Source: Calothrix sp. NIES-2098
GTDB taxonomy: Bacteria; Cyanobacteriota; Cyanobacteriia; Cyanobacteriales; Nostocaceae
DNA: 64,000 nucleotides
Assembly (NCBI GenBank): GCA_002368175.1
Contig: AP018172.1
Span: forward strand, 29,599 to 93,598
Reading direction: 5' to 3'
Positions 5,449-25,476 of this stretch are shown here, in pieces (positions within the stretch are counted from its first letter, which is position 1; the number at the start of each line of letters is the position of its first letter). A program made the position numbers and the translations under genes. Under the pieces are notes generated by a model. That model worked only from the letters and a program-made list of their open reading frames with translations, ran no database searches and was not told the DNA's origin.

Positions 5449-6597
5449 GTGAGTCAAGCTATGACAATCGGCTTTTCTCTCCAGCAGGCAGAACATGACC
5501 TGAATGATTTGAGTGCATTCAATATCCAAAGTTTTTGCCAACTACAATCTGAACAGTTAACTAGTCAGTCTCCAATTTTATTTGCACGTATTGTTTATCA
5601 TGATTGCATTTTAAAAGCTCATCAAGAAGTAATTAGTTATGCTCAAAAACAACCTCTTTTTTCACAAAAACAATTAGCTTATCTGCGTTCAGAACAGTGG
5701 TTTAGTGACTATCCTCTGGCATTCGAGTTAAAAGAATTTAAATTAAATAATTTTTCAGAAATTGCTTACATCTGCCCTATAGGCTATCGCAATCAAAAAC
5801 CTGAGTATATTCAAATAATTGCTGAACGCGCACTTTCTCAGGAATTACAACAATACATCCAGCAATCGGCAATGCTACTTGGTAAGTATGCAAGTATGTA
5901 TTTGGTATATGGCAAACAAAAAATTGAAATTCAATTACTCGAAGAAGTTTTGCATAAAGTCGGGCATCAATTACGTAATTCTTTAGCAACGATCGGGCTT
6001 TATGCTCATAATTTATACTTGGGGTTAACAGGTAATCAGTGCCAAGAGCAAGCAACAGTTATTCGTGAAAGTATCGAAGATTTGGATACTAATTTGAACG
6101 AGTTACTAGATTGTGGACAAGGAGTGAAATTAAGAAAATCTTCTCAAGACCTAAGAACTTTAGTATTGGAAAGTATTAAAGGATTACAACCGCTAATTAA
6201 TCAAAAGCAACTTACAATCTCTATACCCGATACATCTACAAATTTAATAATAGACCGTTTACAAATGAAGCAAGTCTTCGATAATTTGCTGAGTAATGCA
6301 GTTTACTTTAGTCCTAATTCCACAACTATTACTTGTAATTGGCAGATTTTTCAAGATGAAGTGCTAATTAAAATTATTGACCAAGGAAAAGGATTATCTC
6401 CAGAAGATATTCAAAAAATATTTACCCCGTTTTATTCTCGTCGTCCCGGAGGAACGGGACTGGGTTTAACTATTGCCAAAAAAATTGTTTTAGACCATCG
6501 CGGAAACTTATGGGCACAAAGTGTATCACATGGTGGAGCGCAATTTTGTGTAATATTGCCTCGACCGAAAATGTCTAGGAGTGTCAAAGATGGTTAA
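5449..6597 (+). CDS. sensor histidine kinase (HisKA + HATPase_c); start may be the ATG at 5461
   Basis: H-box (VGHQLRNSLATIG), N-box (LLSNAVYF) and G-boxes (DQGKGL, GGTGLGLTIAKKIV). Overlaps the downstream response-regulator gene. Confidence 0.85.
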   Translation: MSQAMTIGFSLQQAEHDLNDLSAFNIQSFCQLQSEQLTSQSPILFARIVYHDCILKAHQEVISYAQKQPLFSQKQLAYLRSEQWFSDYPLAFELKEFKLNNFSEIAYICPIGYRNQKPEYIQIIAERALSQELQQYIQQSAMLLGKYASMYLVYGKQKIEIQLLEEVLHKVGHQLRNSLATIGLYAHNLYLGLTGNQCQEQATVIRESIEDLDTNLNELLDCGQGVKLRKSSQDLRTLVLESIKGLQPLINQKQLTISIPDTSTNLIIDRLQMKQVFDNLLSNAVYFSPNSTTITCNWQIFQDEVLIKIIDQGKGLSPEDIQKIFTPFYSRRPGGTGLGLTIAKKIVLDHRGNLWAQSVSHGGAQFCVILPRPKMSRSVKDG

Positions 6598-7267
6598 TAG
6601 TCAAAAACTTTCAGTTTTGCTTGTAGACGATGAAGAACGTTTTCGCCAAGGCATACGTACCCTGCTCAATTTTTATAATATTAATGCTGCATTACCTATA
6701 GAAGTTGTCGGTGAAGCAGACTCTGTAGAACAAGTTTTAAAACTGACACAGCAGAAGTCTCCAGATTTAATTTTACTGGATTTACAATTAAGCGGTAGTG
6801 ATGGTATTACAGCTTTAGTTCGTTTAAAAGAAATTGCTTATACTGGCAAAGTTTTAGTTTTATCAGCCCACCAAGAAGATGATTGGATTTTCCGGGCTAT
6901 GCAAGCAGGCGCAGCAGGTTATGTATTTAAAAATCGCTTGGCTACTCAATTGGGCGAAGCTATTAAAACTGTGATGCAATCAGAAATTTATTTACCTTCA
7001 GAAGTTGCTAGCCGATTTTTTAGATTCTTTCAAGCTTACTCCGATTCCTCATTAAGAGCTTGCCATCAGTTACACTTAACAGAAAGAGAACAAGAAGTTT
7101 TATACTGGTTAGCTCAAGGTGCTTCCAATGAAGAAATTGCCAAGCATTTATATGTAACCGTTGCCACTGTAAAAGCTCATCTCACTAGCATTTTTGAGAA
7201 GTTAAAAGTTACCAGCCGAACTCAAGCTATTGTAGCCGCCCTCAAGTTAGGACTTGTAAAAGCTTAA
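6590..7267 (+). CDS. response regulator, NarL/FixJ family (REC + LuxR-type HTH)
   Basis: LLVDDE phospho-acceptor region, LILLDLQLSG, and a C-terminal LuxR HTH (EREQEVLYWLAQGASNEEIAKHLYVTVATVKAHL). The ATG at 6590 overlaps the HK stop (ATGGTTAA), consistent with an operon. Confidence 0.85.
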   Translation: MVNSQKLSVLLVDDEERFRQGIRTLLNFYNINAALPIEVVGEADSVEQVLKLTQQKSPDLILLDLQLSGSDGITALVRLKEIAYTGKVLVLSAHQEDDWIFRAMQAGAAGYVFKNRLATQLGEAIKTVMQSEIYLPSEVASRFFRFFQAYSDSSLRACHQLHLTEREQEVLYWLAQGASNEEIAKHLYVTVATVKAHLTSIFEKLKVTSRTQAIVAALKLGLVKA

Positions 7268-7295
7268 GAAGCAGAGTCAAGAGTCAAAAGTCAAT

Positions 7296-7384
7296 TAATT
7301 ATTTCTCCCTTGTCTCCCTTGTCCCATTTCTCCCCACACTCCCCACACTCCCCACTCTCCCTGCTGCCCCTCCGCCTCCCCTTT
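7296..7384 (+). repeat. ~85-nt polypyrimidine (C/T) tract immediately upstream of the pseudokinase gene
   Basis: The sequence tttctcccttgtctcccttgtcccatttctccccacactccccacactccccactctccctgctgcccctccgcctcccc is almost purely C/T. The ORF caller translates it as low-complexity SPHSPHSPLSLLPL, which is unlikely to be coding. Confidence 0.5.
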
Positions 7385-9511
7385 ATGCCTTCATCTGAAT
7401 ATTTTTATCAAGAATACCCTTGCTCTTACAATGCGCCTTTGAATTGCGATCGCCCTTTCCAAACGGCTCAAGAAATCAAAGGTGCTAGGTTTTGTTTGGA
7501 ATGTGGTTTTCCGGCTACTTTACCGCAGGAAGCTGAGATTAAAGGCAATTTGGGTATTTATCAGGTGCATAATTATTTAGGAGCGCGGGGTAATGGTAGG
7601 TTATACGCAGGTATTCACCTGAAGGATCGACAACCTGTAATTATTAAAGAATACTTGCTACCTAGTCGTTGTTTTAATGAAAAAGAGACTCAAGACCGTA
7701 AAGAAACTTTTAAGCGGGTGGGAGGGGTAAGTTTAGCTGATAGTAGAACCCCTAATTTTCGGCTTGTGAATACTTGGGAAGCGATCGCAGATGAAAAAGG
7801 AGAACGCTGTTATTTAATTACTCAAGGTACAGAAACAGCCCAAACCTTAAGACAATATCTTACCCAATATGGGTCAATGAAAGCGCCTCAAGTGCGCGAA
7901 GTATTAAATCAGGCTCTCCAAACTCTAGAATTTTTGCATAGCCAAAAGCTGCGGTTTCCTTCAAATCAAGTACAGCAAGGGCTAGCCCACGGAAACTTGA
8001 GTTTAGATAGCATCTTAATTCAAGTTGAAAATAATCAACAATATATATATTTTGACGATTTAGCTATCTGGGAAAATGTATTTATTCCTCCTAGTATTTC
8101 CCAACCTGCACCTTGCAAACGCGAGTACGATCTAGAAGCACTAGGATTAGTGGCTTTTTATTTATGGGTAGGCAGAACTACCGATTATTCTCATCAGCCT
8201 CTAGACCCCAGAGAAAACGAACATTGGCCTACTAGCGATCCCGATTTAAAAAAATTTATTTCCCGCCTACTACGATTAGAAAATCCGTTTGCAACTGCTG
8301 AATCTGCCCGCGAAAGTCTACTGCAACTACCTCAAGAGTATCAAGCGAGTAGTTTAAGACAATTACCTGAATCTGAAGAAAAAGAAAAGAGTATACGCAC
8401 CAAATTAATTGGGCTAGGAATTTTAGCATTCCTTATCCTAGGAGGTGGGATTTGGTATTATCTTTGGCAACGTCATCAACCAGAAGATAATAGTAAATAT
8501 ATCCCTTGGTTTGGACTAGTACGTAACTTTTCGGAAGTTAACAACGTGCCTTCAGGCAAATTCACCTATACAGGCGAACGAGATGGAACCTGGAGTTTCA
8601 TTTTGAAACAACAAGTTGACAATAATAGTTTAGAAGATTACTTAATCAATCCCAAACCAGAAGTAAAAGCAGAATTTAACTACGAACCAGTTACTTCGAT
8701 AGATTTAGATAATCTTAATCAACCTCTAGAAGAACTAGCAAGTGGTAAGAAAGACTTTGCAATTACTAGTTTAGTAGATAAAATAACAGATAAATTAGAG
8801 CAAAAACCAGCGATCAATGATGGATTACTTGTATATGTAGCATTTAATAAAAAAGATTCCAATTTAGCGAATGCTCTAAGAGGACAAATTACCCTTGAGC
8901 AATTGCGCCAAATTTATACAGGTAAAATTACCAATTGGCAGCAAATTAATTCTCAACTTCCTAATTTAGAAGTCAAACCCTTTGCTCCTACCGAACCGGA
9001 AGCTATACAAAAATTTCAAGAAATAGTGTTAAAAAATGACCCACAAGATAAAGCTTTATTTGCAGCCAATGTAGAAAAATTGGATACAACAAAAACCCAA
9101 AATCAGATACGCAGAGAAATTCTCGAAGGGCGAAATACAGGCATCATTGGTTTTGGGATTATTGCTAAAACTTGGGCGCAGTGTACGGGCTATCCCTTAG
9201 CGATCGTTGATGGTAACAAGCCACCTAGTCAACCGCTATTTCAACGTCGCGAACGTCGCCCTATCAATACCGCAGATGACCTGTGCCAACACGATAACTA
9301 TTTTTTTGATGTTAATGCTTTTCAAAGCTATCCTTTAAGATACCCTATATTTGTGGTGTACCCTAAAGACAAAAGTCGCCAAGCCGGGTCTACATTTGCT
9401 GAGATACTAACTACTCGTCAGGGCCAGTGTTTACTTAGTAAAGTAGGTCTTATCCCTTTACAACCTATACCTGATGAAATAAGGACTTATGCCTGCAAAT
9501 CGGTGCCCTAA
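7385..9511 (+). CDS. membrane-anchored pseudokinase: N-terminal Zn-ribbon-like Cys motif, degenerate protein-kinase-like domain, one TM helix and a ~330-aa extracytoplasmic domain
   Basis: Cys pattern (CSYNAPLNC...CLECGF). Kinase-like segments are present but the catalytic HRD is replaced (HGNLSLDSILI) and DFG is replaced (DDLAIWE), so it is predicted inactive. TM helix LIGLGILAFLILGGGIWYYLW. The likely true start is the ATG at 7385, after the C/T tract. Confidence 0.6.
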   Translation: MPSSEYFYQEYPCSYNAPLNCDRPFQTAQEIKGARFCLECGFPATLPQEAEIKGNLGIYQVHNYLGARGNGRLYAGIHLKDRQPVIIKEYLLPSRCFNEKETQDRKETFKRVGGVSLADSRTPNFRLVNTWEAIADEKGERCYLITQGTETAQTLRQYLTQYGSMKAPQVREVLNQALQTLEFLHSQKLRFPSNQVQQGLAHGNLSLDSILIQVENNQQYIYFDDLAIWENVFIPPSISQPAPCKREYDLEALGLVAFYLWVGRTTDYSHQPLDPRENEHWPTSDPDLKKFISRLLRLENPFATAESARESLLQLPQEYQASSLRQLPESEEKEKSIRTKLIGLGILAFLILGGGIWYYLWQRHQPEDNSKYIPWFGLVRNFSEVNNVPSGKFTYTGERDGTWSFILKQQVDNNSLEDYLINPKPEVKAEFNYEPVTSIDLDNLNQPLEELASGKKDFAITSLVDKITDKLEQKPAINDGLLVYVAFNKKDSNLANALRGQITLEQLRQIYTGKITNWQQINSQLPNLEVKPFAPTEPEAIQKFQEIVLKNDPQDKALFAANVEKLDTTKTQNQIRREILEGRNTGIIGFGIIAKTWAQCTGYPLAIVDGNKPPSQPLFQRRERRPINTADDLCQHDNYFFDVNAFQSYPLRYPIFVVYPKDKSRQAGSTFAEILTTRQGQCLLSKVGLIPLQPIPDEIRTYACKSVP

Positions 9512-10160
9512 TCCTAATTGCGAATATTTTAACCGCGCTTTACCCAACAATGCGAAGGTTTGCCCTTGGTGCTCAACTCCCTTGGGTAATGTAATTACAC
9601 CTACACCAACTCCTACTAGATCCGTTCCACCCCAACCAACGCCTCCACAACAAACTCCACCGCAAGCAACTCCATCACCATCTGTTCCACCCCAACCGAC
9701 TCCACCTAAACGACCAGTAGCAAATCCACCTGGCTATCCACCCCCCGGTGATTATTCCACAGAGTATCAGCAACGAGTTCCCCCCTACGTTCCACCCGTA
9801 CAGCCTGCGTATACTCCGCCACCGCCAAGATTACCACTGCTGAAGCTAATTCACTCTACAGGTAGAGAATTCCAGTGGTCGGGGGAAGCAGGTTACATTG
9901 GTCGGCGCAGTCAAAGTATGACAGTTCCGCCAGAAATTGACTTAACTGGTATTCCCCATGAGGGAATAATTTCTCGTCGCCATGCAAGGATTTATTGGGA
10001 CTGGTCGCAAAATGCGTACACAATCGTTGATATGAGTACAAATGGTATTTATTTAAATAACACTCTGTTAAATCCTGGCGTGCAATATCGTTTACTTAAT
10101 GGCGATTCATTGCAGTTCGGTCAAGATAATCTCGTGCGATTTACAGCGTATGTTATGTAG
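9489..10160 (+). CDS. FHA-domain protein with N-terminal zinc ribbon and Pro-rich linker
   Basis: CPNPNC...CPWC zinc ribbon; PQPTPP repeats; C-terminal FHA signature (GRRSQSMTVPPEIDLTG...ISRRHARIYWD...STNGIYLNNTLL). Overlaps the upstream pseudokinase gene by 23 nt. Confidence 0.8.
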   Translation: MPANRCPNPNCEYFNRALPNNAKVCPWCSTPLGNVITPTPTPTRSVPPQPTPPQQTPPQATPSPSVPPQPTPPKRPVANPPGYPPPGDYSTEYQQRVPPYVPPVQPAYTPPPPRLPLLKLIHSTGREFQWSGEAGYIGRRSQSMTVPPEIDLTGIPHEGIISRRHARIYWDWSQNAYTIVDMSTNGIYLNNTLLNPGVQYRLLNGDSLQFGQDNLVRFTAYVM

Positions 10161-10284
10161 TAGATATAGCAATTCTGTTTGATGTACAAACTACTCGTGC
10201 CCCTACCACCGTATTTGTATCATAATTAAAGTGAAACGGTATTACGCTCGTAATGACATTTTATGTTGAATTAAGTTGAGCTAC

Positions 10285-13200
10285 TTATCGCTCTACTTTC
10301 TGGCGTAACTTCTCCATCAGCTGTTGTTTGCGGTCTATTCCTTTCATCCTCATATCAACCATCTGTTGAATAATTTCTTCTTGTTGTAAACGATTCAAAC
10401 CAATTTCTGGATCGGGAGAAACACGATAGCGCTGAGTAATTTTAGCAGCAATTTCTGCATCATCTGCATTAATTAACCACCGGGATGCTTCAGGAATAAC
10501 TTCATTACCATAGTCTGCTGCTACCTTTTGAATTAACTTTTGCTGCATCAAATGTGCTTGATATTCTGCATAGAAAATTTGATTGGATATGATAGATGCT
10601 TCGGTAATTCTTTGAAAATGGTGAGTTAATTCATGTACTACTGTTCCAGCAACACCGTTAACTGAAGTATCGCCAGCGATAAACACTGTACGCGTGCTGG
10701 GTTCGTAAAAACCACCTGCTTTTAAGTTAGGATTGTTAATATATTTTCCAACTAATGTTGTAGCTTGAGCTTCATTTTTTATAGCTTGCCTAATAGCTTC
10801 CTCGGTCATTGGTAGAATCTTACCTTGTTGTGTTAGTTCCAAAAAGGTAGCGGTGTAAGCTTCATTTGTATAGCGTGCTAATACTAAGCCTACCTTTGCG
10901 CGATCGACATCTCTAAAAGCAGCGCCAACTGCTTCAATTTGTTCGGCAATATTCAAGCCTTGTTTCAAATTTCGCTTGGCGATATCAATTAATTTCTGTG
11001 CTTGTTCTTGAGGTAAAACTTTAGTTGCTGCTTTGGAAAAGGCTTCTAATGTTGTTGCGGCTTGGCGTAATTGTTTAAAATAACTGGCAAGCATTAAGGC
11101 GTTGGCTGCAAAATCCGCGATCGCAATTATCAACCAGATTAACTGGGGATCTTCGGCTGACATTTTGGCGATCGCCGGATCGAGACCTACATCACTAGCA
11201 GCCGATTGTTTGCTATAAGTTGAGGCCTTCTCCACCACATCAATCGCACTAACAACCGTACCGACTGCGATTGCAATTCCGGGATTGAGAGTTACTATAC
11301 TGGCAATAATACCTGCTGTAATCGCAAAAGCTTTGAGTCCATCTTCTAAGCTTTTCTCATCAGCTTTAATTTGCTGTTCTTTTTGAATCCGAGTGTTAAT
11401 TACCGACGATAACGTAGGGTTTTGATCTATGCCTAAATCTTGTTTCGTCATCCCCACAATATCGTTTAACTGCCAAATCCTCAGTTTATCTTGGCTAATA
11501 TTGTCTTCTGTAGTGCGGATATTTTCGAGAATTTCATCAATTTTGCCACCAACAATCGATGTTAACTCTGCATCTGAAGCAGTTGCTAATTTTTCTACAT
11601 CGATATCTTCTCGTAGCAAAATCTGATATTTCAGTGCATAATTAGATTTTTGTGCCTTTAGTTCATTTTGCTTTTGTTCAATTCGTTGCTGAATTTCTGA
11701 TTCATGGGCTAAATCATAAGCTGATGAACTCGCCTGTTCTGGTTCTGGGACACCACCTGGGGGTAAATCTTTGTGTGCTTCCCGCAGTTGTAGCTGTAAA
11801 TTTTCAATCTCTTTAGTACGCGCAGTTAAATCCTTAGCAGCATTCCGCAGTCCTTCGCGTTTCTGAGGGCCATTATCACCTGCTTCCGTACAAATATCTT
11901 TATATTTATCTGCTTCTTTTTGCGCAAGTTCTCGGTTTTGTCGTAATTGCACCAAGGCTATTTGCTTACCTCGGTTGACAAACATATTCGGGAAATCTTC
12001 TGTCACTAACTTGACTAACTGGCTTTCTTCTACATTTAAAGATTTCAGTACCGCCTCGACCATCTTTTTTTGGTTCTCGAAATCAGCAGTTAGTGCATTA
12101 ATTTCATTAGATAACAAATCTCTTTGAGCTTCTTTGGCTTCAACTTCTGGGGTGCGACCGCTATAGTCTTGGATATCACGCTTTAACTGTTCCAGTTGTT
12201 CGGTTTTTTGTTTCAGTTCTTCACCCTTTTTGTCCCGTTCCTGAATTAAGGTAAAGGCTGTAGCATCCTTCATTGCAGTGTTGAGAGTTGCCTTAGAACC
12301 TTCATCTAAAGGAGGTGTTTCCTTCAGAGTAGTTCTCGCATACATCAGCCTGCGCGCATCCTCCGGTGACAGTCCTGGGTTATTCGCTGTACCTGCATCA
12401 GGAGTTTGACGCTGAATTAACATCACCTGTCCTGAGAAATTCCCTAGTTGGGGACGAAGTACGGGAATTTGGCTAAAATTATGACCGGATGTTTTCGCCA
12501 TCACCACAGTTTCAGAAGATGGTTCTTCACTGCTACTAGTTTTCTCAGCTTTTTTGCTACATTCCGCAGATAAATCAATTTCTGTGGGAGGAGTTTGTTT
12601 GCGACCATGATCTGTGGTGGTGTCATACTGGTCGTGTACTGCTTGGACTTTAGCTCTCAGTGCGTCACTTTCGCTAGTTACATCACTTGTAGCTTTCCCA
12701 ATAAAGCGCTGATGAGCAGAGGGGAATTCTTTGTTATCAATAGCAACGTGACCATCTTCATGATTTTTCAGCGCGCTATAGAAGTTATCCCATGATTGTT
12801 GTACTGGTGGGCATTGTTTGTTGCGTTCTGCCCATCGTGGCATGGTCATCACCTGAGTGACGTTAAGATTTGCTTGGGTTATGGGATCGCCTTGAGTAGT
12901 CACTTTGAAGTTAAAATCCACAGAGCCAGCTTCATCAGGCAGATTATTGGCAACTTCGTCTAAATTTTTACCGTGATAGGTGTTGTGTTGCAGGGTGGGA
13001 GGATTTTGGATGGTAGTGCTTCCAGATGAGGGGTTTTTGGCTGCTGGTTGAGCATTGTTTAATTGTGGCGTATCGCTTTGTAGGGGAGGATTTTCATCTA
13101 GTTGACGTAACAAAAGGTTAGTTGTAGGACGTACATGGGGTTGGCAAGAAATACGCCCAATATCATGTTCAGCCAGATTTTGCGGAGAAGCTTCTGCTAA

Positions 13201-13383
13201 CAATAATTCTTCTGTAGAACTTGGTGCAGTTTGAATTTGCGGTGTATTAATTGGCGGTGTGAAATTGGGTGTTGATGCGGCTAGTGATGGTTGCGTAGCG
13301 TTTTGGGGTGTAGTTTTTTTGCGTTGTGTTTTTATGCGATCGCTTGTCATGTCACCCAATTCCCCATCAACTGCTACAACCAA
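10285..13383 (-). CDS. large CIS effector-like protein: N-terminal FSxIPV-type leader motifs, coiled coil, two predicted TM helices, C-terminal HExxH zincin-like motif
   Basis: 1032 aa. Two copies of the motif typical of DUF4157-family toxins (HDIGRISCQPHVRP and HNFSQIPVLRPQ). A long charged coiled-coil region. Hydrophobic helices (AFAITAGIIASIVTLNPGIAIAVGTVV, LIWLIIAIADFAANALMLASYF). HELTHH near the C-terminus. Transcribed divergently from the CIS structural operon, downstream of a DUF4157 gene. Confidence 0.55.
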   Translation of the reverse strand: MVVAVDGELGDMTSDRIKTQRKKTTPQNATQPSLAASTPNFTPPINTPQIQTAPSSTEELLLAEASPQNLAEHDIGRISCQPHVRPTTNLLLRQLDENPPLQSDTPQLNNAQPAAKNPSSGSTTIQNPPTLQHNTYHGKNLDEVANNLPDEAGSVDFNFKVTTQGDPITQANLNVTQVMTMPRWAERNKQCPPVQQSWDNFYSALKNHEDGHVAIDNKEFPSAHQRFIGKATSDVTSESDALRAKVQAVHDQYDTTTDHGRKQTPPTEIDLSAECSKKAEKTSSSEEPSSETVVMAKTSGHNFSQIPVLRPQLGNFSGQVMLIQRQTPDAGTANNPGLSPEDARRLMYARTTLKETPPLDEGSKATLNTAMKDATAFTLIQERDKKGEELKQKTEQLEQLKRDIQDYSGRTPEVEAKEAQRDLLSNEINALTADFENQKKMVEAVLKSLNVEESQLVKLVTEDFPNMFVNRGKQIALVQLRQNRELAQKEADKYKDICTEAGDNGPQKREGLRNAAKDLTARTKEIENLQLQLREAHKDLPPGGVPEPEQASSSAYDLAHESEIQQRIEQKQNELKAQKSNYALKYQILLREDIDVEKLATASDAELTSIVGGKIDEILENIRTTEDNISQDKLRIWQLNDIVGMTKQDLGIDQNPTLSSVINTRIQKEQQIKADEKSLEDGLKAFAITAGIIASIVTLNPGIAIAVGTVVSAIDVVEKASTYSKQSAASDVGLDPAIAKMSAEDPQLIWLIIAIADFAANALMLASYFKQLRQAATTLEAFSKAATKVLPQEQAQKLIDIAKRNLKQGLNIAEQIEAVGAAFRDVDRAKVGLVLARYTNEAYTATFLELTQQGKILPMTEEAIRQAIKNEAQATTLVGKYINNPNLKAGGFYEPSTRTVFIAGDTSVNGVAGTVVHELTHHFQRITEASIISNQIFYAEYQAHLMQQKLIQKVAADYGNEVIPEASRWLINADDAEIAAKITQRYRVSPDPEIGLNRLQQEEIIQQMVDMRMKGIDRKQQLMEKLRQKVER

Positions 13384-13559
13384 GATAAGGCTTGTCTATT
13401 GCCAATTACCATCGACCTAAGATTAAAATTCTGCTAAGGGACTTGTAACTAAAAAAATATCTCAATTTATCAAACCGCATTAGACACGCAGTGGCTTCCC
13501 GCAGGCTAGACGCCAAGTACGCCAAGAATTCGTAGCGTGGGCGTAAGTCTTATCTATTT

Positions 13560-13866
13560 GGAGTACTTCAAAGTCGTGTTGAGGTACTTCAAAGTCGTGT
13601 TGAGGTAGTTCACAGTCATGTTGGAGTACTTTGCAATCGTGTTGAGGTAGTTCACAGTCGTGTTGAGGTACTTCCAAATCGTATTGAGGTACTTCAAAGT
13701 CGTGTTGAGGTACTTCAAAGTCGTGTTGGGGTACTTCACAATCGTGTTGAGGTAGTTCACAGTCATTTGGAGTACTTTGCAATCGTGTTGAGGTACTTCA
13801 AAGTCGTGTTGGGGTACTTCACAATCGTGCTGGAGTACTTCAAAGTCAAGTTGAGATACTTCACAG
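13560..13866. repeat. tandem array of ~14.5 copies of a 21-bp unit (consensus GTACTTCAAAGTCGTGTTGAG)
   Basis: Directly visible: head-to-tail units with point variants (gtagttcacagtcgtgttgag, gtactttgcaatcgtgttgag, ...). Lies between the DUF4157 gene and the 1032-aa gene. Confidence 0.9.
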
Positions 13867-13871
13867 TATAT

Positions 13872-13896
13872 GTAGGATGGGCATCGCCCACCCTAC
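13872..13896 (-). other. stem-loop 8 nt downstream of the DUF4157 stop; transcript sense GUAGGGUGGGC-GAU-GCCCAUCCUAC
   Basis: 11-bp stem with one G:U pair and a 3-nt loop; no U-run follows. The same motif recurs after the gpI-like gene at 25396 in the same transcriptional orientation. Confidence 0.35.
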
Positions 13897-13903
13897 GTAT
13901 GTT

Positions 13904-14599
13904 TTAATGATTTTGCTGCACAACGTGAGTTAATTCGTGAGCAAGTAACTCTTTACCTGGGTTACTTTCGGGAGCATATTCACCCTGACGGAAAAATATA
14001 TCTTGTCCGGTAGTGAAGGCGCGGGCTTGAATAGATTGGTTCATTTGGTCGGAGCGAGTATTATTGTGAATTTTGACACCGCTAAAATCAACGCCAAATG
14101 CTTGCTCCATTGGTTGGCGAACATTATCTGCTAGTGGCTGTCCGCTTCCCCGTGCTTGTTGAATAGAAGATTCTAAATTCGCTGCGGCTTCTGTCCCACC
14201 TTCAGTAGATTTAGCCTGTATTTCCTCTTCTGGTAGTTCTTCTCGTTGCACAAGGGGAGTGATGGAATCTCCTAGAGATTTTTTTTGCAGTGTTTCTTCT
14301 TCTGGTAATGCTTCTCGCTGGATAGGCTGACTCATAGTTTGCATTACCTGCTGCGCAACTCTATCGGCTTCTTGTTCATAAACATCCCCAGGTTGACTAA
14401 CTGCGAGTTTGGTTTGCGGACGTAGCGAGATGCGGCTAATGTCATGACCGAGGGGTTGGTTTTGAGATTGTACCTCAGCCACAGTTTGAGGGGAAGCTTC
14501 AGATGATTGTAAACCAAAGCCACGTTTTGGCTTGAGTGTAGGTATGGAAACGGGCGTAGTGTCAGCCTTTTGGCGCTGGGCTAATATGCGTTCTTTCAT
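13904..14599 (-). CDS. DUF4157-domain protein (eCIS-associated zincin-like HExxH domain), stand-alone
   Basis: The C-terminal 80 aa match the DUF4157 pattern closely (AFGVDFSGVKIHNN...ARAFTTGQDIFFRQGEYAP...LLAHELTHVVQQ). The N-terminus has the HDISRISLRP leader motif. The protein ends 4 aa after the HExxH. Confidence 0.85.
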   Translation of the reverse strand: MKERILAQRQKADTTPVSIPTLKPKRGFGLQSSEASPQTVAEVQSQNQPLGHDISRISLRPQTKLAVSQPGDVYEQEADRVAQQVMQTMSQPIQREALPEEETLQKKSLGDSITPLVQREELPEEEIQAKSTEGGTEAAANLESSIQQARGSGQPLADNVRQPMEQAFGVDFSGVKIHNNTRSDQMNQSIQARAFTTGQDIFFRQGEYAPESNPGKELLAHELTHVVQQNH

Positions 14600-15015
14600 T
14601 TTTTTCTCCTAATGCCCAAGCAGCAAGTAAATTTTTTATCAGTAGAGATATCTAGAATAGTGCTTCTCTCTGCCAAAGTCTAAATTAGGCAAAACTCAAG
14701 TTCGACTTTTGGCTAGTGTTGATTCTGATGCACTACCTTTAGCCTTGATTTTAGGATGAATTTTTTATTTTTAGTTATGGACTCAGAAGGAAAGCAAACT
14801 TTTTTTACACCTATTGGAGAAGTTGGGGGTAGTGTTGGTTATTCAGGCGTGTCAATTACCTCTAACCCCAGCCAAGTAGCTAAAGCAGCCGATAAGTATC
14901 TTAAAGACTCATTGCTTTTGCACAAGCTTACCGAACGTGTATATGAAATTTTACTTGAAGACCTGCGTTGCCAAAAGGAAAGGTTCAATAACTATAGTCA
15001 TCAAAGGTGGTTGTA

Positions 15016-15534
15016 ATGGCTGAAGGTAATAACGGCAATATTTCTCACGAGTTAAAGTATGTCACTACAAATCATTTCTATGTAGAAATCGATAGTTCTA
15101 TCGCTGCATCTTTTACTGAATGCGCTGGATTAAGTATGCAAGTGAAAAAAAATGTTTTTTTTGAAGGAGGTGTCAACGACCAGCAAAGAATTTATTTAGG
15201 ACACGCAGAATTTGCCGATGTCACTCTTAAACGCGGTGTCACCGACCACCCCGGTTTTTGGAATTGGATTAATGCAATTTTTGATGAAAAATCCACTACT
15301 CGGCGTAATGTTAATATTTTGGTTTTTAACCAAGCTGGCGAAACGATGATGAGTTGGACATTGATTGGTGCTATTCCTATATCTTGGAAAACACCAACCT
15401 TACAAGCAGATGGTAACGCAGTTGCTATAGAAGAATTAACTTTAGCTTATGAAGGTTTGCAATTAGGTAAATCTAAAGGCGGCGGTAATCCACAAACACG
15501 CGAGAAAAAGTCAGGTTTTTTCTTGTCTAATTAA
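15016..15534 (+). CDS. contractile injection system tube protein (T4 gp19 / Cis1-like)
   Basis: Conserved tail-tube family pattern (HFYVEIDS...FTECAGLS...YLGHAEFADVTLKRGVTD..FWNWI...WTLIGAIPISWKTPTLQADGNAVAIEELTLAYEGL). ATG at 15016; the ORF track begins at an upstream GTG. Confidence 0.85.
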   Translation: MAEGNNGNISHELKYVTTNHFYVEIDSSIAASFTECAGLSMQVKKNVFFEGGVNDQQRIYLGHAEFADVTLKRGVTDHPGFWNWINAIFDEKSTTRRNVNILVFNQAGETMMSWTLIGAIPISWKTPTLQADGNAVAIEELTLAYEGLQLGKSKGGGNPQTREKKSGFFLSN

Positions 15535-15557
15535 TTTGCAATTCTCCAACTAAAATT

Positions 15558-18500
15558 ATGCAAATTATTCAACCATTAATAGTAACTAAATTTCAACCGC
15601 TTGGGTTTGGAGTGAGAAAGCCTCTAGGTTATTCTCATCGACTTTTGTCAAGAAAAGAGTCTAGTTCTCTGTACGGTCATCATACTATCAAACCTTTAGG
15701 CGATCGCGTACCATTAGTCACCTATTCTCAATTTTTACAATCTCACGATAATCAAGTATTTAGCGACCCATCAATAGATGCTAATTTTCCAGAAACTGAA
15801 AATATTAATACTGACCTGACCTTAATTCAATTTGATACAGTTGATTCAGTTTTCTCAGATAGTAATAATCTTGATTCTGAATATATAGAAGGCGATATTC
15901 CAAATATATTACCTACTGCAAACACCAGCGACACGAATAATATTACACTGGAATCAAATATTAAAGTTAAGTCAAAATCCAAAAGAACGGAGAAATTGTC
16001 CGACTCTGAAGCTAAATCAAAGGCTAAATCTAGAGCTAAAAAAACGACTAAATCATCTAAGCAGATAGATGATATTCCTATTGTTAATAATAATGATGGG
16101 TTAGTAACACTCAATCAAAATCAAGCTTTAGATGCTAATAAAGAAACTAAAATACAGTCAAATATAAATGATAAAATAACTGATGGCGGTACTTCTATTA
16201 ATACCTGGAAAGCTTCGCTTATTGTTAATAATGAATCTGGATTAAGCGAGAATTTTGCTAATGAGGAAACGCCAGCGATCGCTGATTCTGTATCTACTGT
16301 AGATCGTGCTGATTTACCAACTATATCTCCTGCTACTAATAGCAGTGAAATTAGGACGCGATCGCCACAAGAAACTGCGTCAAAAACTATTGCTAATGAC
16401 ACTGCAAAAAGTTCAGAGTCAGAATCTAATGTAACTAGTATTGTTGATACATTAACTCTTTTAAGTAACTTAAATCCTAGAGAACAGACTATATTAACTG
16501 AAGATTCACAAGTTGTTGATGTCTCAGATATTCCAATTAACCAAACTGCAAAACAACAGGAAATAGTTACTAATTCAAATATCCTTAACCAACAAGATCT
16601 ATTCTCTACACAACAGCAGGAACATTTACCAGCTACAATTAGGAATTCTCAAGAAATTACAAACAATCTTCCAGACTCTAGCAATTATTTGTTAGATACT
16701 ACTAAACCTAGAGTTGAAGATACAGCTAATTTATCCCGTAATTTAGTAAATCTTTCCGAAGCACCATCTCCTCTACCCAACACTGAAGATTTAACTACAG
16801 TTAATGCATTAGATGCAGAAAATATTCCAAATATAACCACACCGGAAATTGTTAGTAATATATCCGTTCAGCCAGCACCAATCTCACCTGTAATTGAAGA
16901 TAACCTAATAGTCACTCCAGAATTACAGTCTACAGAAGTAGTTAATTTTGCGAATGCGCCAGCAAATGTCACTCCTCTACAAACTGACAGCACTAGCAAT
17001 ATACAATTAGCATCAACCTCGCCTGTAATTGCACAGGCGATAGTCACCTCAGAATCACAGTCTCTTGAATCAGATAATTTGGGGAACGCGCCAGAAAATG
17101 TCACTTCTCTACAAACTGACAGCACTAGCAATATACCCGTTCAGCTAGTACCAACTCCACCTGTAATTGCAGATAGGGGGATAATCTTGGATGCGTCAGA
17201 AAGTATAACTCCCCAACAAACTGACAACGCCAGCGATGTACCCGTTGAATTAGCAGCAACTCCACCTTTCATTGCAGATAACCCCATAATCGCTTCAGAA
17301 TCGGTTAATTTGTCGGATATACGAGAAAATATGACTCACCGACAAACTGATAGCACCAGCAATGTACCCGTTCAGCTAACGCCAACCTCACCTGTAATTG
17401 CAGATAACCCGATGGTGAGTTCAAAATCCCAATCTGCTGAATCAGTTAATTTGCTGGATGTGCAAGAAAGTCTGGTTTTATCCCCAGATGATAGCCAAAA
17501 AAACACAGAAATTCCAACTGTTGTCACTCCACTTCAATTGCGCCAAAGTACTGAAGTGGATACAGTAGCAGTAGATGAGAGTGCGATGTCTGACGAAAAG
17601 CCACATAGTGTCTACGCATCTGCCACATCAAGTATTATTTTGGAAGCTGGTAATGACGAACAACCTGTAAAACCAGATTTACCATCTACGGTTACAAGCT
17701 TGACTTTCACAGAGAATCAGTCAGAAACCTTAGATAACTTACCCGCACCACAAGGTTTTGCAACCGGGGGACAAGTCACACACTCCTCAGTGGAAAATCC
17801 ACAGATAGCATCTTCGGATACAGTCCCTGCTATGCTCACACCTGGGGAATTTGTCGTTAATGCTAATGATGCTCAGAAAAATCTTCACATACTCCGGCAT
17901 ATCAATACTGGTGGTACAGCAGAGGATATGATCCTTCCCAGTTTAGAGCTACCAACTCCAGAGACTCCGACTAAAGTCGATTCTTTTGCTGACACTTCAT
18001 TACAGCGTCAAAAATCTGATAATAGCGAATCTGAGGAATCTAACTCCCTAACTCCTGCTTCTTTAAGCACAGAAATTAGTCAGCACAGGCTTTCTTCACA
18101 CAGTTCTTTACCGCTAAATACTGTTGAAAACAATACTACTGCAAGAACTGAACCCTCTCCTCATTACTCATTACCTACATTAATCTTCCGCAAAACTACT
18201 TCCAACACTAACGCACCCTATGAAACGCCTACCCAATGGTCAAGTGTGGAAGAATTACTCAATGGAAACAACGATCCATTTACATCTTTTAACTTTAATG
18301 AGGAAGAATCTAACTGGCAAAATTCAGAACATTCTCAAACTTCACAACCATCGCCGCAAGTTTTTACTAAACGCCTAACTTCGGCTCAAGGCTTTGCTAA
18401 CGGTGGAGAAGTCACAGCACCCGATATAGCTACAGATATACAGCCAATAACTGAAACCATACAAAGTCCTTCTGCTGCTAATCCCGAAGCCGATGAATCT

Positions 18501-18605
18501 AGAAATCTAGAAGCTTTAGCCTATGAAATATATAACAGATTGCGACAACGAATAGAAGTTGAGCGAGAGCGTCAAGGTATCTATTTAGGTCGTTTACCTT
18601 GGTAA
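15558..18605 (+). CDS. 1015-aa low-complexity Ser/Thr/Asn/Asp-rich repeat protein; candidate tape-measure-like or cargo protein occupying the position where a sheath gene is expected
   Basis: Basic N-terminal ~60 aa, a Lys-rich patch (KSKSKRTEKLSDSEAKSKAKSRAKK), four to five 42-44-aa tandem repeats (..NVT.LQTDSTSNIPVQL.PT.PVIADN..), two GFA(T/N)GG(Q/E)VT motifs, and a structured C-terminus (LEALAYEIYNRLRQRIEVERERQGIY). Not sheath-like. Confidence 0.5.
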   Translation: MQIIQPLIVTKFQPLGFGVRKPLGYSHRLLSRKESSSLYGHHTIKPLGDRVPLVTYSQFLQSHDNQVFSDPSIDANFPETENINTDLTLIQFDTVDSVFSDSNNLDSEYIEGDIPNILPTANTSDTNNITLESNIKVKSKSKRTEKLSDSEAKSKAKSRAKKTTKSSKQIDDIPIVNNNDGLVTLNQNQALDANKETKIQSNINDKITDGGTSINTWKASLIVNNESGLSENFANEETPAIADSVSTVDRADLPTISPATNSSEIRTRSPQETASKTIANDTAKSSESESNVTSIVDTLTLLSNLNPREQTILTEDSQVVDVSDIPINQTAKQQEIVTNSNILNQQDLFSTQQQEHLPATIRNSQEITNNLPDSSNYLLDTTKPRVEDTANLSRNLVNLSEAPSPLPNTEDLTTVNALDAENIPNITTPEIVSNISVQPAPISPVIEDNLIVTPELQSTEVVNFANAPANVTPLQTDSTSNIQLASTSPVIAQAIVTSESQSLESDNLGNAPENVTSLQTDSTSNIPVQLVPTPPVIADRGIILDASESITPQQTDNASDVPVELAATPPFIADNPIIASESVNLSDIRENMTHRQTDSTSNVPVQLTPTSPVIADNPMVSSKSQSAESVNLLDVQESLVLSPDDSQKNTEIPTVVTPLQLRQSTEVDTVAVDESAMSDEKPHSVYASATSSIILEAGNDEQPVKPDLPSTVTSLTFTENQSETLDNLPAPQGFATGGQVTHSSVENPQIASSDTVPAMLTPGEFVVNANDAQKNLHILRHINTGGTAEDMILPSLELPTPETPTKVDSFADTSLQRQKSDNSESEESNSLTPASLSTEISQHRLSSHSSLPLNTVENNTTARTEPSPHYSLPTLIFRKTTSNTNAPYETPTQWSSVEELLNGNNDPFTSFNFNEEESNWQNSEHSQTSQPSPQVFTKRLTSAQGFANGGEVTAPDIATDIQPITETIQSPSAANPEADESRNLEALAYEIYNRLRQRIEVERERQGIYLGRLPW
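16840..17470 (+). repeat. intragenic tandem repeats of ~126-132 bp (x4-5) inside the 1015-aa gene
   Basis: Repeated DNA blocks such as gcgccagcaaatgtcactcctctacaaactgacagcactagcaatata... and gcgccagaaaatgtcacttctctacaaactgacagcactagcaatata... Confidence 0.8.
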
Positions 18606-18757
18606 TTTTTTTATAAAAACGAACCACGAAGTTCGCAAAGTTCGCAAAGTATGAGAAATCAAAAATAATTTCTAAACAAACTTTATTCTTCTACTCTCTG
18701 CGCCTCTGCGTTTCTGCGTGAACTTTCAAATCTATTAATCCTCATAACAATACTTAA

Positions 18758-19306
18758 ATGGCTACTCAAACAATTATCATTCCCCAAAAAAGGAATCCGC
18801 AACTACAGAAAGCTAAACTCGTAGCTTATGAAGGTGAAGCACCAGATATTGAACTGATGTTTAACCCTACAGAAATTAGTTTTTCTCGGACTGTTAGCTG
18901 GGAAAAAGAGAAAGGTAATAGAGGAACCACATTATTACCTAAAGTAAATTTCTCTGGTCTAGAACCTTACAAATTCACTCTTAAACAATTACTCTTTGAT
19001 ACTTATGAAACTAAACAATCCGTAATGGATTATATAGACATCATCAAGCAAGGAGTAGAAACTATTGAGCGAAATCCAGATAAACGTCCCCCAGTGTATA
19101 GGTTTATTTGGGGAATAGAATATTTTCATTGTGTAATTACTAGTCTCACATACAATTTAAATATGTTTCTGACTGATGGTACGCCAGTTAGAGCAATAGT
19201 AGATATCTCTTTACAAGAGGTAGATAAAAAGAACCCACCAGGGGGGAGACAATCAGCTTCTAAAGGCGCAAATCGTCAGCCAAATCCTAAGCTAGGAAAA
19301 ACTTAA
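18758..19306 (+). CDS. CIS tube-fold baseplate/tube-initiator protein (Cis5/Cis7-like)
   Basis: 182 aa. FNPTEISFSRTVSWEKEK...FSGLEPYKFTLKQLLFDTYE resembles the second, tube-like protein that sits between tube and spike genes in eCIS loci. The call rests on synteny plus this motif only. Confidence 0.5.
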   Translation: MATQTIIIPQKRNPQLQKAKLVAYEGEAPDIELMFNPTEISFSRTVSWEKEKGNRGTTLLPKVNFSGLEPYKFTLKQLLFDTYETKQSVMDYIDIIKQGVETIERNPDKRPPVYRFIWGIEYFHCVITSLTYNLNMFLTDGTPVRAIVDISLQEVDKKNPPGGRQSASKGANRQPNPKLGKT

Positions 19307-19360
19307 TAATTAGTTTTCAAGGCATTTATTCTTGCTTTATTGCCTATTTTTATCGTACTT

Positions 19361-21100
19361 ATGCCCGACCAAAGTCTTTATTTAAGCCAACCTAAATTGG
19401 AATTAGGAGGAGAAGCCGCTTCTCCTGAGCTAATGAAGGATTTATTACAAATTAGTGTGGAAGAAAGTTTACATTTACCAGCGATGTTTACGCTGTTAGT
19501 ACACAATAGCTATATTCCCACCGTTGACCGTCCAGAATATCAGCCTCGGCGTCACGAACAGTTATTTGAAATTGGTAAAAACGTTAAGATAGGTTTTACT
19601 TCTAGTACAACTCAAGATGGGAATTTTCAAAAAAAGTTAGATGATTATCTCATTGAAGGCGAAATTACAGCGATGGAAGTTCACTTCAATGAAAAATCAG
19701 AAGCTCATATAATTATTCGCGGTTACGATCTCTCTCATCGCCTGCATAGAGGTCGTTATAATCGTTCGTTCTTAAATAAAACTGATAGCGATATTGTAGA
19801 GCAAATAGCGTCAGAAGTAGGAATAAAAACTGGTAAAATAGACCCCAGCGGTGAAGCTCATGAATATGTCTTTCAAGAAAACCAAACTAATATGGAATTC
19901 TTACGAGAACGGGCTGCTCGCATTGGTTTTGAATTATTTATTTACAACAGCAAGCTATATTTTCGCAAACCAGAAAGCCAGGAATCGATAAAACTAAAAT
20001 GGCTAGTCGATATTAGTAAATTTAGTACCCGTGTCACCAGTGCAGAACAGGTGAGTGCTGTTGAAGTGCGTGGCTGGGATTATACTCAAAAAAAAGCGAT
20101 CGCATCTACAGCTAAAGCAGAAAAGGTAATAACTGATACAGGCAATAAAAAAGGTAGCAGTACTAGTACTAATTTTTCTAACTTAAAGCCGCCGAAAATG
20201 ACCGTTGTCGATCGACCAGTTGCTAGCACTACACAAGCACAGAAAATGGCGCAGGCTTTGTGTGATGAACTGGGAGGAGAATTTGTCTATGCAGATGCGA
20301 AAGCTGTAGGTAATCCCAAAGTTAGGCCAGGAAAAATAATTGAACTGGAAGGATTAGGCGATCGCTATAGTGGAAAGTATTATGTCACCGAAACTCGCCA
20401 TTTCTACGCTCAACGAATTTATACCACAGAGTTCAGCATTCGGGGGTTACGGGCTGGTAACTTATTCACCACTCTCTCGACTCAAACCCGTCTTCAGCCT
20501 GGTCAAACCTTCTTAGTAGGAATTGTCACCGATAACAAAGACCCTCAAGGATGGGGGCGAGTAAAAGTGAAATTTCCCACCCTCACTGAAGAACACGCTA
20601 GCAACTGGGCGCGAGTTGTGGCTTCGGGCGCAGCAAATCAACGTGGCTTTGATTGTTTACCAGAAGTTAACGATGAGGTTTTAGTTGGGTTTGAACATGG
20701 TGATATCCATCGCCCTTATGTAATAGGTGGTGTTTGGAATGGCAAAGACGCGCCACCAGAAGCGGTAGATGATACAGTTGTGGGGGGAAAAGTCCGATTA
20801 CGCACTGTCAAAACTCGTACAGGACACACCTTGCAGTTTATCGAAGAAGATAAAGGTAGCAGTAAAGCCGGGGTGCGCGTGCAAACGCAAGGCGGTCACA
20901 AAATTTATCTTAATGATAGCGATCGCTGTATTGAAATTGAAACCAACGGCGGTCATAAAATTAAAATGGATGATACAGGTAAATCAAAAATTTCCGTAGA
21001 ATCCACAGGTGATTTATCTTTAGAAGCTCCTAGAGGCAGCATTGATATTAAAGCCGGTCTGGATGTGACAGTCCAAGGTAAGTTTATTCGATTGAATTAG
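19361..21100 (+). CDS. spike/baseplate hub protein, VgrG-like (gpD + gp5/V OB-fold), Cis8-like
   Basis: C-terminal gpV/gp5-type domain (DNKDPQGWGRVKVKFP...NWARVV..GFDCLPEVNDEVLVGFEHGDIHRPYVIGGVWNG). Size and position fit a spike gene. The ATG at 19361 is preferred over the upstream TTG. Confidence 0.7.
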   Translation: MPDQSLYLSQPKLELGGEAASPELMKDLLQISVEESLHLPAMFTLLVHNSYIPTVDRPEYQPRRHEQLFEIGKNVKIGFTSSTTQDGNFQKKLDDYLIEGEITAMEVHFNEKSEAHIIIRGYDLSHRLHRGRYNRSFLNKTDSDIVEQIASEVGIKTGKIDPSGEAHEYVFQENQTNMEFLRERAARIGFELFIYNSKLYFRKPESQESIKLKWLVDISKFSTRVTSAEQVSAVEVRGWDYTQKKAIASTAKAEKVITDTGNKKGSSTSTNFSNLKPPKMTVVDRPVASTTQAQKMAQALCDELGGEFVYADAKAVGNPKVRPGKIIELEGLGDRYSGKYYVTETRHFYAQRIYTTEFSIRGLRAGNLFTTLSTQTRLQPGQTFLVGIVTDNKDPQGWGRVKVKFPTLTEEHASNWARVVASGAANQRGFDCLPEVNDEVLVGFEHGDIHRPYVIGGVWNGKDAPPEAVDDTVVGGKVRLRTVKTRTGHTLQFIEEDKGSSKAGVRVQTQGGHKIYLNDSDRCIEIETNGGHKIKMDDTGKSKISVESTGDLSLEAPRGSIDIKAGLDVTVQGKFIRLN

Positions 21101-21131
21101 GATTTTATTTCGCGCAAAGGCGCAAAGAAAA

Positions 21132-21644: not shown

Positions 21645-21733
21645 CCGCTTCTCATCTCGACCTTTGGCGAATAGGCTTAAATCTGCTGTGCCGATATCTT
21701 TGAAAGTATAGATATCACAGCCATATAGTAACT

Positions 21734-22141: not shown

Positions 22142-22160
22142 TTCCTAATTTGGTGTAACT

Positions 22161-24350: not shown

Positions 24351-24361
24351 GGGAAAAGCTT

Positions 24362-25393: not shown

Positions 25394-25395
25394 AA

Positions 25396-25416: not shown

Positions 25417-25476
25417 AAAATATAATCTACAGTATTACTTCGTGTTCTTTGCGTCCTTCGCGGTTAGTTTTTGTAT

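Follow-up and report, generated by a model that had tools for sequence, protein, structure and literature searches.

Stand-alone DUF4157 gene and modular candidate cargo gene beside a contractile injection system operon of Calothrix sp. NIES-2098

Gene pair and divergent operon

The DNA analysed here, a stretch of 64,000 nucleotides (64 kb) referred to throughout as the window, comes from the cyanobacterium Calothrix sp. NIES-2098 and carries an operon of a phage-tail-like contractile injection system (CIS), beside which two genes are transcribed in the opposite direction. One is a small gene for a stand-alone DUF4157 protein; the other is a large gene for a modular protein, examined here as candidate CIS cargo. 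The original prediction, made from the letters of the sequence, had described the two open reading frames (ORFs) as a divergent effector module and associated them with a CIS; the ORFs proved real, and they lie on the minus strand, divergent to an operon of tube, VgrG, PAAR, gp25 and baseplate genes. The large protein is 100% identical to NIES2098_00270, and the small one matches the NCBI 'eCIS core domain-containing protein' of the same strain with 100% identity (eCIS, extracellular CIS). The locus comprises the following main features.

13904 to 14599, minus strand: small gene, 231 amino acids (aa), leader followed by a stand-alone DUF4157/eCIS_core domain (ORF; Pfam)
10285 to 13350, minus strand: large gene, modular candidate cargo, 1021 aa (ORF; NIES2098_00270 has 1021 aa at NCBI)
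14756 to 26676, plus strand: divergent CIS operon (Pfam)

The operon consists, in order, of an 86-aa ORF and the genes for the gp19 tube, a 1015-aa tape-measure-like protein, CIS_tube, VgrG, PAAR, gp25, baseplate J, P2_I and a DUF4159/CIS13-like protein. Both minus-strand genes directly adjoin it, and are thus within about ten genes of CIS core genes, while the small gene is the immediate upstream neighbour of the large one, so that a DUF4157 domain is encoded within two genes of the latter.

The large ORF (10285 to 13383) is open to a TTG at 13383 and spans 1032 codons, which accounts for the 1032 aa first attributed to the protein. The probable start is the ATG at 13350 (MTSDRIKTQRKK…, 1021 aa), since it matches the NCBI annotation and parallels the MKERILAQRQKA… start of the small protein; the earlier length therefore holds for the ORF rather than for the probable product. 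Residue numbers of the large protein follow the 1032-codon numbering throughout.

Two features make up the small protein, which starts with MKERILAQRQKA….

14426 to 14446, minus strand: leader motif HDISRIS, aa 52-58, in the presumably disordered N-terminal region (motif search)
13910 to 14137, minus strand: DUF4157/eCIS_core domain, aa 155-230 (PF13699, E=1.2e-32)

The PF13699 match reaches 112.4 bits against a cut-off of 22 and covers model positions 1-76 of 79. The HELTH motif of the domain (aa 221-225) lies at its C-terminal end, and the protein terminates with …HELTHVVQQNH, two residues past QQ and not the four originally counted. A homologue search returned 2847 matches at E<1e-10; the counts that follow derive from the best 120 of these. 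Almost all are short Nostocales proteins with the same start, most of them 224-402 aa long, and nearly all of the top homologues listed have HDISRI near residue 52. The protein ends no more than five residues from the HExxH in 30/120 and no more than 30 residues from it in 76/120, so that a stand-alone DUF4157, which had been presented as exceptional, is the commonest form in Nostocales among these homologues. This leader type recurs widely among Nostocales DUF4157 proteins, and known toxin C-termini are present in some of them (e.g. PF15656). Neither the small nor the large protein has an NCBIfam or PHROGs match.

Modules of the large protein and their relatives

The large protein combines a leader, a zincin-like domain and a payload of about 700 aa, with the leader motif repeated between the second and third modules.

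13084 to 13350, minus strand: N-terminal leader, aa 12-100 (BLASTP against the N-terminal region of the small protein)
13147 to 13167, minus strand: leader motif copy 1, HDIGRIS, aa 73 (motif search)
12604 to 12924, minus strand: DUF922 zincin-like domain, aa 154-260 (PF06037, E=2e-17)
12748 to 12762, minus strand: HEDGH, aa 208, the third HExxH of the locus (motif search)
12460 to 12483, minus strand: leader motif copy 2, HNFSQIPV, aa 301-308 (motif search)
11332 to 12381, minus strand: all-helical conserved region of the payload, aa ~335-684 (bundle of ~40-residue helices)
11233 to 11331, minus strand: hydrophobic Gly/Ala-rich stretch with a central NPG, aa 685-717, candidate membrane hairpin (Kyte-Doolittle 1.55-1.9)
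11077 to 11148, minus strand: second hydrophobic helix with conserved Asp residues, aa 746-769 (Kyte-Doolittle up to 2.15)
10288 to 11061, minus strand: C-terminal HExxH…E domain, aa ~775-1032 (confident alpha/beta domain; AlphaFold2)
10621 to 10635, minus strand: HELTH, aa 917 (motif search)
10564 to 10566, minus strand: invariant Glu940 (alignment)

The N-terminal regions of the two proteins align with each other (BLASTP E=2e-4) and have in common the motif and a low-complexity composition (52% P/T/S/Q/N in the leader of the large protein), which makes them a candidate system-specific loading sequence. The pattern H[DN][FIL][SG][RQKH][IV] has three matches in the six frames of the window, all within the small and large genes, and two or more copies occurred in 0/20,000 shuffles of the large protein; the motif is therefore not a chance occurrence. 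The two leader-like copies at aa 73 and aa 301 and the leader held in common with the small protein, both part of the original prediction, are thus borne out. Copy 2 is followed by LRPQ, as in the small protein, and sits just before the payload junction (…LIQRQ, aa ~322-326). The possibility that it is a vestige of the first DUF4157 strand (FGxDFSxVRVH) was considered and set aside: a hidden Markov model (HMM) of that strand finds neither copy, and an HMM of the leader motif picks up both, although all scores are very weak. A leader-like origin is accordingly preferred on sequence grounds, though not proven. The same leader type is present in an Oculatella effector (P0007) and in a member of the payload family (P0018). 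A repeat of the leader motif at a module boundary appears to be undescribed in the literature searched.

As originally stated, the large protein has no DUF4157 match in Pfam and bears a separate C-terminal HELTH at aa 917. What had been overlooked is a DUF922 domain with an HExxH of its own, matched by PF06037 at 64.2 bits (cut-off 27) and with the HExxH conserved. A zincin-like nature of DUF922 had been predicted by Lenart et al. (2013; PMC3650047). Homology to DUF922 relatives extends over aa 102-289 (12517 to 13080), and the H, E and H of the HExxH, together with a TDHGR motif, are invariant in nine effector-type sequences. In 9/9 homologues retrieved with the full-length query (P0006-P0014), DUF922 shares a polypeptide with DUF4157, in either order, and a genome scan for DUF922 added two further loci (L019 and L020), likewise with DUF4157 in the same protein. 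In one of these homologues, P0006, DUF4157 and DUF922 are fused in collinear order: its residues 75-260 correspond to the small protein (44% identity) and its residues 259-445 to aa 102-289 of the large protein (64% identity).

This DUF922 effector subtype lies beside cap, ATPase and sheath genes in several loci (L002/L018, L004, L020), with the order cap, ATPase, effector in Oculatella and cap, WHD-AAA, effector, cap, sheath in a metagenome-assembled genome (MAG) of Ktedonobacteria; around its occurrence in a Chloroflexia MAG, no CIS gene was detected within 10 kb. Generic DUF922 proteins, which are 26-31% identical (L021-L025), are not CIS-linked. Judged by these sequences, effector-type DUF922 appears as a distinct CIS-linked branch. 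DUF922 is absent from the searched portions of the supplements to Geller et al. (2021; PMC8213781) and Danov et al. (2024; PMC11297309), and its CIS-linked subtype appears undescribed in the CIS literature searched.

Three parts make up the payload: a bundle of long helices, a hydrophobic stretch and, at the C-terminus, the HExxH…E domain. AlphaFold2 models, with a predicted local distance difference test (pLDDT) score of 82-84, show aa ~340-690 as a confident bundle of ~40-residue helices, the long helices exceeding pLDDT 90, in line with the long coiled coil first noticed from the sequence. Two transmembrane helices had also been proposed. Hydrophobic segments, called at Kyte-Doolittle values above 1.5, do exist at aa 685-717 (family consensus ALAIxAGxxAAxxTGG) and aa 746-769 (consensus PxLxWLAxDxxxxxLD), but the second, modelled at pLDDT ~75-90, packs into the C-terminal domain. 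Because of this packing and its conserved Asp residues it does not resemble a free membrane segment, so that in the models only aa 685-717 looks like one.

In 64 aligned payload sequences H917, H921 and E940 are invariant and E918 is conserved in at least 90%. E940 lies 19 residues past H921, and the resulting HExxH-x18-E corresponds to the metal-site spacing and ligands of gluzincins. The possibility of a hidden DUF4157 was rejected, as hhalign of the family against DUF4157 aligns only 13 columns around the HExxH. With DUF6782 (PF20573), the C-terminal domain has an HExxH-helix region in common, but the match covers only ~40 residues (aa 884-924) and stays below the cut-off (23.7 bits against 27); the relative P0077 exceeds it with 32.3 bits. 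No PDB sequence matched the large protein at E ≤ 1.

These features bear on whether the C-terminal domain would act as a peptidase. The large protein may be cargo whose C-terminal HExxH domain has a non-proteolytic activity, for instance that of a metal-dependent oxygenase-like enzyme, or whose toxicity comes from an action of the helical and hydrophobic part on membranes. This would agree with the toxicity of Cgo1 of AlgoCIS, which is independent of its HExxH motifs (PMC8894135), and with the helical and hydrophobic regions being as conserved as the C-terminal domain. However, an invariant HExxH with a Glu 19 residues past the second His is the classic gluzincin spacing, the matches of the C-terminal domain include anthrax lethal factor, deuterolysin and M30 and M32 peptidases, and the weak Pfam similarity, above the cut-off in P0077, is to a putative metallopeptidase family. 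We therefore regard this alternative as unlikely.

A search with aa 680-1032 retrieved 119 cluster representatives, mostly of 750-1100 aa, in which the module is almost always C-terminal. Homology to the closest relatives (56-59% identity) begins at ~aa 309, just past the second motif. These relatives lie inside complete eCIS operons, right after a WHD-AAA ATPase and near a stand-alone DUF4157 protein of 231-235 aa; in L001 the order is BTAD, WHD-AAA, payload, 517-aa protein, stand-alone 231-aa DUF4157, PAAR, cap, sheath and tube, and L003 and L008 are similar. The N-terminal region of the payload proteins in these three loci differs from that of Calothrix and is common to the neighbouring 517/522-aa protein. 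That neighbour, of 516-522 aa and without a Pfam match (L001 11864-13417; L003 1979-3547; L008 5147-6697), is probably a second cargo of those systems, since it shares the N-terminal region of the payload protein (RLxDxRL…QR…AQGNxHL). In L001, the gene calls divide the payload homologue (9399-11848) into two genes of 208 and 615 aa, which jointly match relatives of 821-823 aa; this division, in a metagenome contig, is probably due to a frameshift or assembly error.

A fusion of the DUF4157 domain and the payload, which the original prediction had suggested looking for in relatives, is found in ~14-24 representatives, with DUF4157 upstream (e.g. P0015, P0017, P0019, P0021, P0023). In P0051 DUF922 lies upstream of the payload, with no DUF4157 shown. 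The frame of another member, P0020 (L010/L011, ~nt 250-320), follows directly on a stop codon and opens with PGNNELTAHELTHVVQQTG…, 17 residues that form the end of a DUF4157 domain; upstream of it lies repeat-like non-coding sequence. By its sequence, P0020 is the 5'-truncated remnant of a DUF4157-payload fusion, which makes the end of DUF4157 a recurrent recombination or breakage point.

A conserved gene of 219-234 aa follows the payload gene directly on its 3' side in at least five loci (L007/L015, L010/L011, L016, L017). It lies within a few bases of the payload gene, in organisms of 40-70% GC, and has no Pfam match (L007 3179-3883; L010 2532-3218; L017 3559-4218; also L016 and, partially, L012). 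By analogy with toxin-immunity pairs, of which this layout is typical, it is a candidate immunity or partner protein. Scanning a genome collection with the payload alignment gave no match, and scanning metagenomes gave two loci, one of them already known. Both the payload family and the candidate partner gene appear undescribed in the literature searched.

Synteny and the spacer between the genes

Two relatives, Nostoc sp. T09 (L013) and C. brevissima NIES-22 (L014), have an orthologue of the small gene (83% and 66% identity, respectively) in the same place, divergent to operons whose proteins are mostly 75-95% identical and in the same order. Neither locus contains the large gene or any trace of one. 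In NIES-22 the small gene is directly followed by the FHA, kinase, GerE-regulator and histidine-kinase genes that lie beyond the large gene in the window (69-91% identity), and across the compared loci flanking genes are 66-93% identical. DNA similarity to NIES-22 extends no further than the 3' ends of the small and FHA genes, which are separated there by 134 bp against 3.74 kb in NIES-2098. With the flanks syntenic and the large gene missing, the large gene and the repeat array beside it constitute a strain-specific presence/absence difference. The sequence comparison is most simply explained by their insertion next to the small gene, which is itself the ancestral stand-alone gene of the lineage.

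From the small gene to the ATG of the large gene the spacer measures 553 bp and has stops in all frames, including the part between the repeat array and the large gene. Two elements were recognised in it.

13872 to 13896, minus strand: RNA hairpin with an 11-bp stem and a 3-nt loop, beginning 8 nt past the stop codon of the small gene
13563 to 13867, no strand assigned: 21-bp tandem repeat array of 14.6 copies with 78% matches (Tandem Repeats Finder, TRF)

The hairpin fold (13862-13906, minus strand) has -20 kcal/mol and z = -4.0 against shuffles, with no U-tract after it; it may help to end or stabilise a transcript, or may belong to a repeat element. The array takes up most of the spacer. 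Eleven copies of the 21-bp repeat lie within three mismatches, and none occurs elsewhere in the window. A 100-aa ORF at 13480 to 13782 was rejected both as a gene and as a linker, being situated inside the array, without a Pfam match and separated from the large ORF by several in-frame stops; it is probably spurious, and carries a PQHDCEV-like heptapeptide repeat from the array. A heptamer repeat (TTGACTG/TTGACGG) is present at the equivalent place in C. brevissima NIES-22, and the short-read assemblies of NIES-2098 (L005, L006) end shortly past the small gene.

The organisation of the spacer also bears on whether the two genes were once a single one. Mutation, or the arrival of the repeat array, might have divided an ancestral DUF4157-DUF922-payload gene into the two present ORFs, as could be suggested by the collinear fused form in P0006, by the stop of the small protein right at the end of its DUF4157 domain, by the break at exactly this junction in P0020 and by the array itself between the two genes. 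Yet stand-alone orthologues ending two residues past the motif occupy the same position in relatives that have neither the large gene nor a remnant of it, the large gene has a complete leader and start of its own, stops occur in every frame of the spacer, and the payload of P0006 is a different one. A gene split in NIES-2098 is largely refuted by synteny and the intergenic stops, and we consider fission highly improbable. Of the 'split or modular' toxin originally envisaged, modularity stands, given the DUF4157-payload fusions elsewhere and the collinear P0006, whereas the split does not, in view of the synteny, the separate leaders and the spacer.

Candidate cargo role and neighbouring genes

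With fair rather than high confidence, both genes are read as cargo-module genes of a Nostocales phage-tail-like CIS, the large one being a strain-specific accessory cargo assembled from portable modules: the leader of the lineage, DUF922, the second motif and the payload. A possible course of events can be drawn by analogy with AlgoCIS and Photorhabdus virulence cassette (PVC) cargo. The shared, presumably disordered leader (M-x-[ED]-R-I…, with the HD[IF]xRI motif) would direct loading into the tube lumen, perhaps helped by a Cis15-type AAA+ ATPase encoded elsewhere, and contraction of the sheath would expel the cargo. The payload might then attach to a membrane through its hydrophobic stretch, with the C-terminal zincin as the putative toxic enzyme, while DUF922 and the DUF4157 of the neighbouring gene would serve as accessories in maturation, chaperoning or release and not as toxins. 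In AlgoCIS the disordered N-terminal region is required for loading and DUF4157 is dispensable (bioRxiv 10.64898/2026.05.27.728243).

Several observations weigh against this reading. Genes for the sheath, the cap (Cis16) and the Cis15 AAA+ ATPase were not found in the window by Pfam or tblastn, so that the locus does not hold a complete CIS, and they are also absent next to the orthologous loci L013 and L014. The stretch at aa 685-717 is modelled at very low confidence in both models (pLDDT 21-43). No homologue of the 219-234-aa partner gene was found in the window, nor in the closest relatives (L001, L003, L008), so that the large gene has no immunity-like partner beside it. The HExxH-independent toxicity of Cgo1, mentioned above, points in the same direction.

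The missing machine genes, together with the repeat array and strain-variable content beside the small gene, might indicate that both genes are relics in decay, beside the remnant of a CIS that is incomplete, sheath-less and not functional. This appears very improbable: both ORFs are intact and all three HExxH motifs preserved, and the CIS genes are 75-95% identical and in the same order in three genomes, which argues for purifying selection. Nostoc sp. T09 and C. brevissima NIES-22 have the same sheath-less arrangement of genes. In Oculatella, cap, ATPase and effector form a locus separate from the tube and baseplate genes, which means that split CIS loci occur in cyanobacteria; by analogy, the sheath, cap and ATPase genes of NIES-2098 are presumably at a second genomic locus. 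Moreover, NIES-2098 is included in a supplementary table of an eCIS toxin-prediction study that drew its genes from eCIS-operon-positive genomes (PMC11297309).

The arrangement belongs to a known class of CIS cargo, in which a leader, a zincin-like accessory domain and an exchangeable C-terminal payload are combined. Mass spectrometry of purified particles of the thylakoid-anchored CIS of Anabaena sp. PCC 7120 revealed Alr3311 and Alr3312, both with DUF4157, which were proposed to be cargo of the tube lumen (Weiss et al., 2022; PMC8894136). Compared by description and not by sequence, that pair likewise consists of two putative effector genes on the opposite strand beside a CIS of Nostocales. 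Both Anabaena proteins contain DUF4157, whereas only one does in Calothrix, the other having DUF922 and an uncharacterised payload; in addition, the Anabaena cluster is contiguous (all3313-all3327), while the Calothrix window has no sheath, cap or ATPase genes.

Cgo1 and Cgo2 of AlgoCIS are expelled on contraction (Xu et al., 2022; PMC8894135), and combine a similar disordered N-terminal loading region with different C-terminal domains (PMC8894135; PROCIS preprint 10.64898/2026.05.27.728243). In Cgo1 the C-terminal domain is metalloprotease-like and holds a second HExxH, a likeness drawn from description and not from sequence. Both, however, have DUF4157 in cis and lack DUF922 and a long helical or hydrophobic region, and leaders are not conserved between the systems. 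The eCIS-associated toxins (EATs; Geller et al., 2021, PMC8213781; Danov et al., 2024, PMC11297309) resemble the large protein in their proximity to CIS core genes, the DUF4157 of a neighbouring gene, a variable C-terminal payload and, presumably, a disordered N-terminus. They differ in that neither this payload family nor an association with DUF922 is mentioned in the searched portions of PMC8213781, PMC11297309 and their supplements; nor are the small and large proteins among the entries covered of the prediction table of Danov et al. (2024; PMC11297309).

Tme (BN159_7576) of Streptomyces davawensis (PMC11126660) is also a large protein, in which an accessory zincin-like domain in the N-terminal part is combined with coiled coils, predicted membrane helices and, at the C-terminus, an enzymatic toxin domain. 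It has DUF4157 in cis, an endonuclease C-terminus, a position directly upstream of the baseplate genes and remote tape-measure homology, none of which applies to the large protein. The large gene encodes no DUF4157, lies on the opposite strand outside the operon and has no PHROG match, and is thus not a Tme-type effector.

The likeness to Tme nevertheless bears on an alternative in which the large protein would not be an injected toxin but would serve the CIS in a structural, anchoring or regulatory capacity, for instance as a membrane-embedded factor or a tube-lumen or tape-measure-like protein, with HExxH motifs used for processing only. Its long helices and hydrophobic segments resemble both Tme (PMC11126660) and CIS components that anchor to membranes, its gene has no immunity gene beside it, and the Anabaena CIS is thylakoid-anchored (PMC8894136). 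Nonetheless, close relatives that share the conserved operon lack the large gene, which is therefore dispensable for the machine. The tape-measure slot is held by the 1015-aa protein, with its weak PHROG match, and elsewhere the payload is accompanied by an immunity-like partner gene and swaps N-terminal regions in the manner of polymorphic cargo. A structural role is accordingly judged unlikely, and candidate cargo remains the preferred reading.

That DUF4157 might act 'in cis or in trans' has already been proposed (PMC11297309), and its occurrence on an adjacent gene has been described (PMC8213781, PMC11297309). A more specific and decidedly speculative idea, to which we give little credence, is that the HD[IF]xxI motif at module boundaries is a recognition or cleavage site for the zincin-like domains, that DUF922 and DUF4157 are an obligate pair divided between two genes in Calothrix, and that the stand-alone DUF4157 would mature or release the cargo in trans. 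The notion of an obligate pair builds on the 11/11 relatives found through the DUF922 region in which both domains share a polypeptide, with P0051 as a separate exception, and the motif precedes DUF922 and recurs between DUF922 and the payload. If true, this would amount to a two-gene protease/substrate step in the processing of CIS cargo and would give a function to the long-unexplained DUF4157 'core' domain.

Cyanobacterial CIS are abundant and without a characterised effector. The locus offers a natural comparison, in which three near-identical CIS operons have the same stand-alone DUF4157 gene and one has an additional cargo gene. As this cargo carries the leader of the lineage and no DUF4157 of its own, it provides a convenient setting for the question of DUF4157 in trans. 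The analysis further defines an uncharacterised payload family of at least 119 cluster representatives, with a candidate immunity partner in several lineages. The locus thereby adds members and a test case, and the picture of CIS effector organisation is unchanged.

Within the operon, the 86-aa ORF at its head (14756-15016, plus strand) overlaps the start of the tube gene by 10 nt and is kept in L013 and L014 at 77-87% identity, where it is called as 79 aa; it has no match in Pfam, NCBIfam or PHROG. The low-complexity 1015-aa protein in the tape-measure position (15558-18605, plus strand) matches PHROG tape-measure proteins weakly and diverges much faster than its neighbours, with 52-55% identity against 75-95% and lengths of 1041 and 1200 aa in the relatives. 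At the operon end, the 401-aa DUF4159 protein (25471-26676, plus strand) has a weak N-terminal match to the NCBIfam model CIS13_fam (38.8 bits, cut-off 370), a sequence similarity that hints at a relationship with the membrane-anchoring Cis13 of the Anabaena thylakoid-anchored CIS.

Beyond the large gene, on the side opposite the operon, lie genes for FHA, Ser/Thr-kinase-PBP, GerE response-regulator and histidine-kinase proteins (Pfam). In the kinase-PBP gene, the TTG-started ORF opens at 7310-7400 (plus strand) with an HSPHSP-type repeat (MSPLSHFSPHSPHSPLS…); since the NIES-22 match begins at residue 18, the listed start is probably too far upstream, in the short repeat. The whole block of histidine kinase, GerE-type regulator, Ser/Thr-kinase-PBP fusion and FHA genes (5449-10160, plus strand) is also found beside the CIS in NIES-22 (L014 10950-15761), and GerE regulators and kinases have been proposed as regulators of eCIS (PMC8213781).

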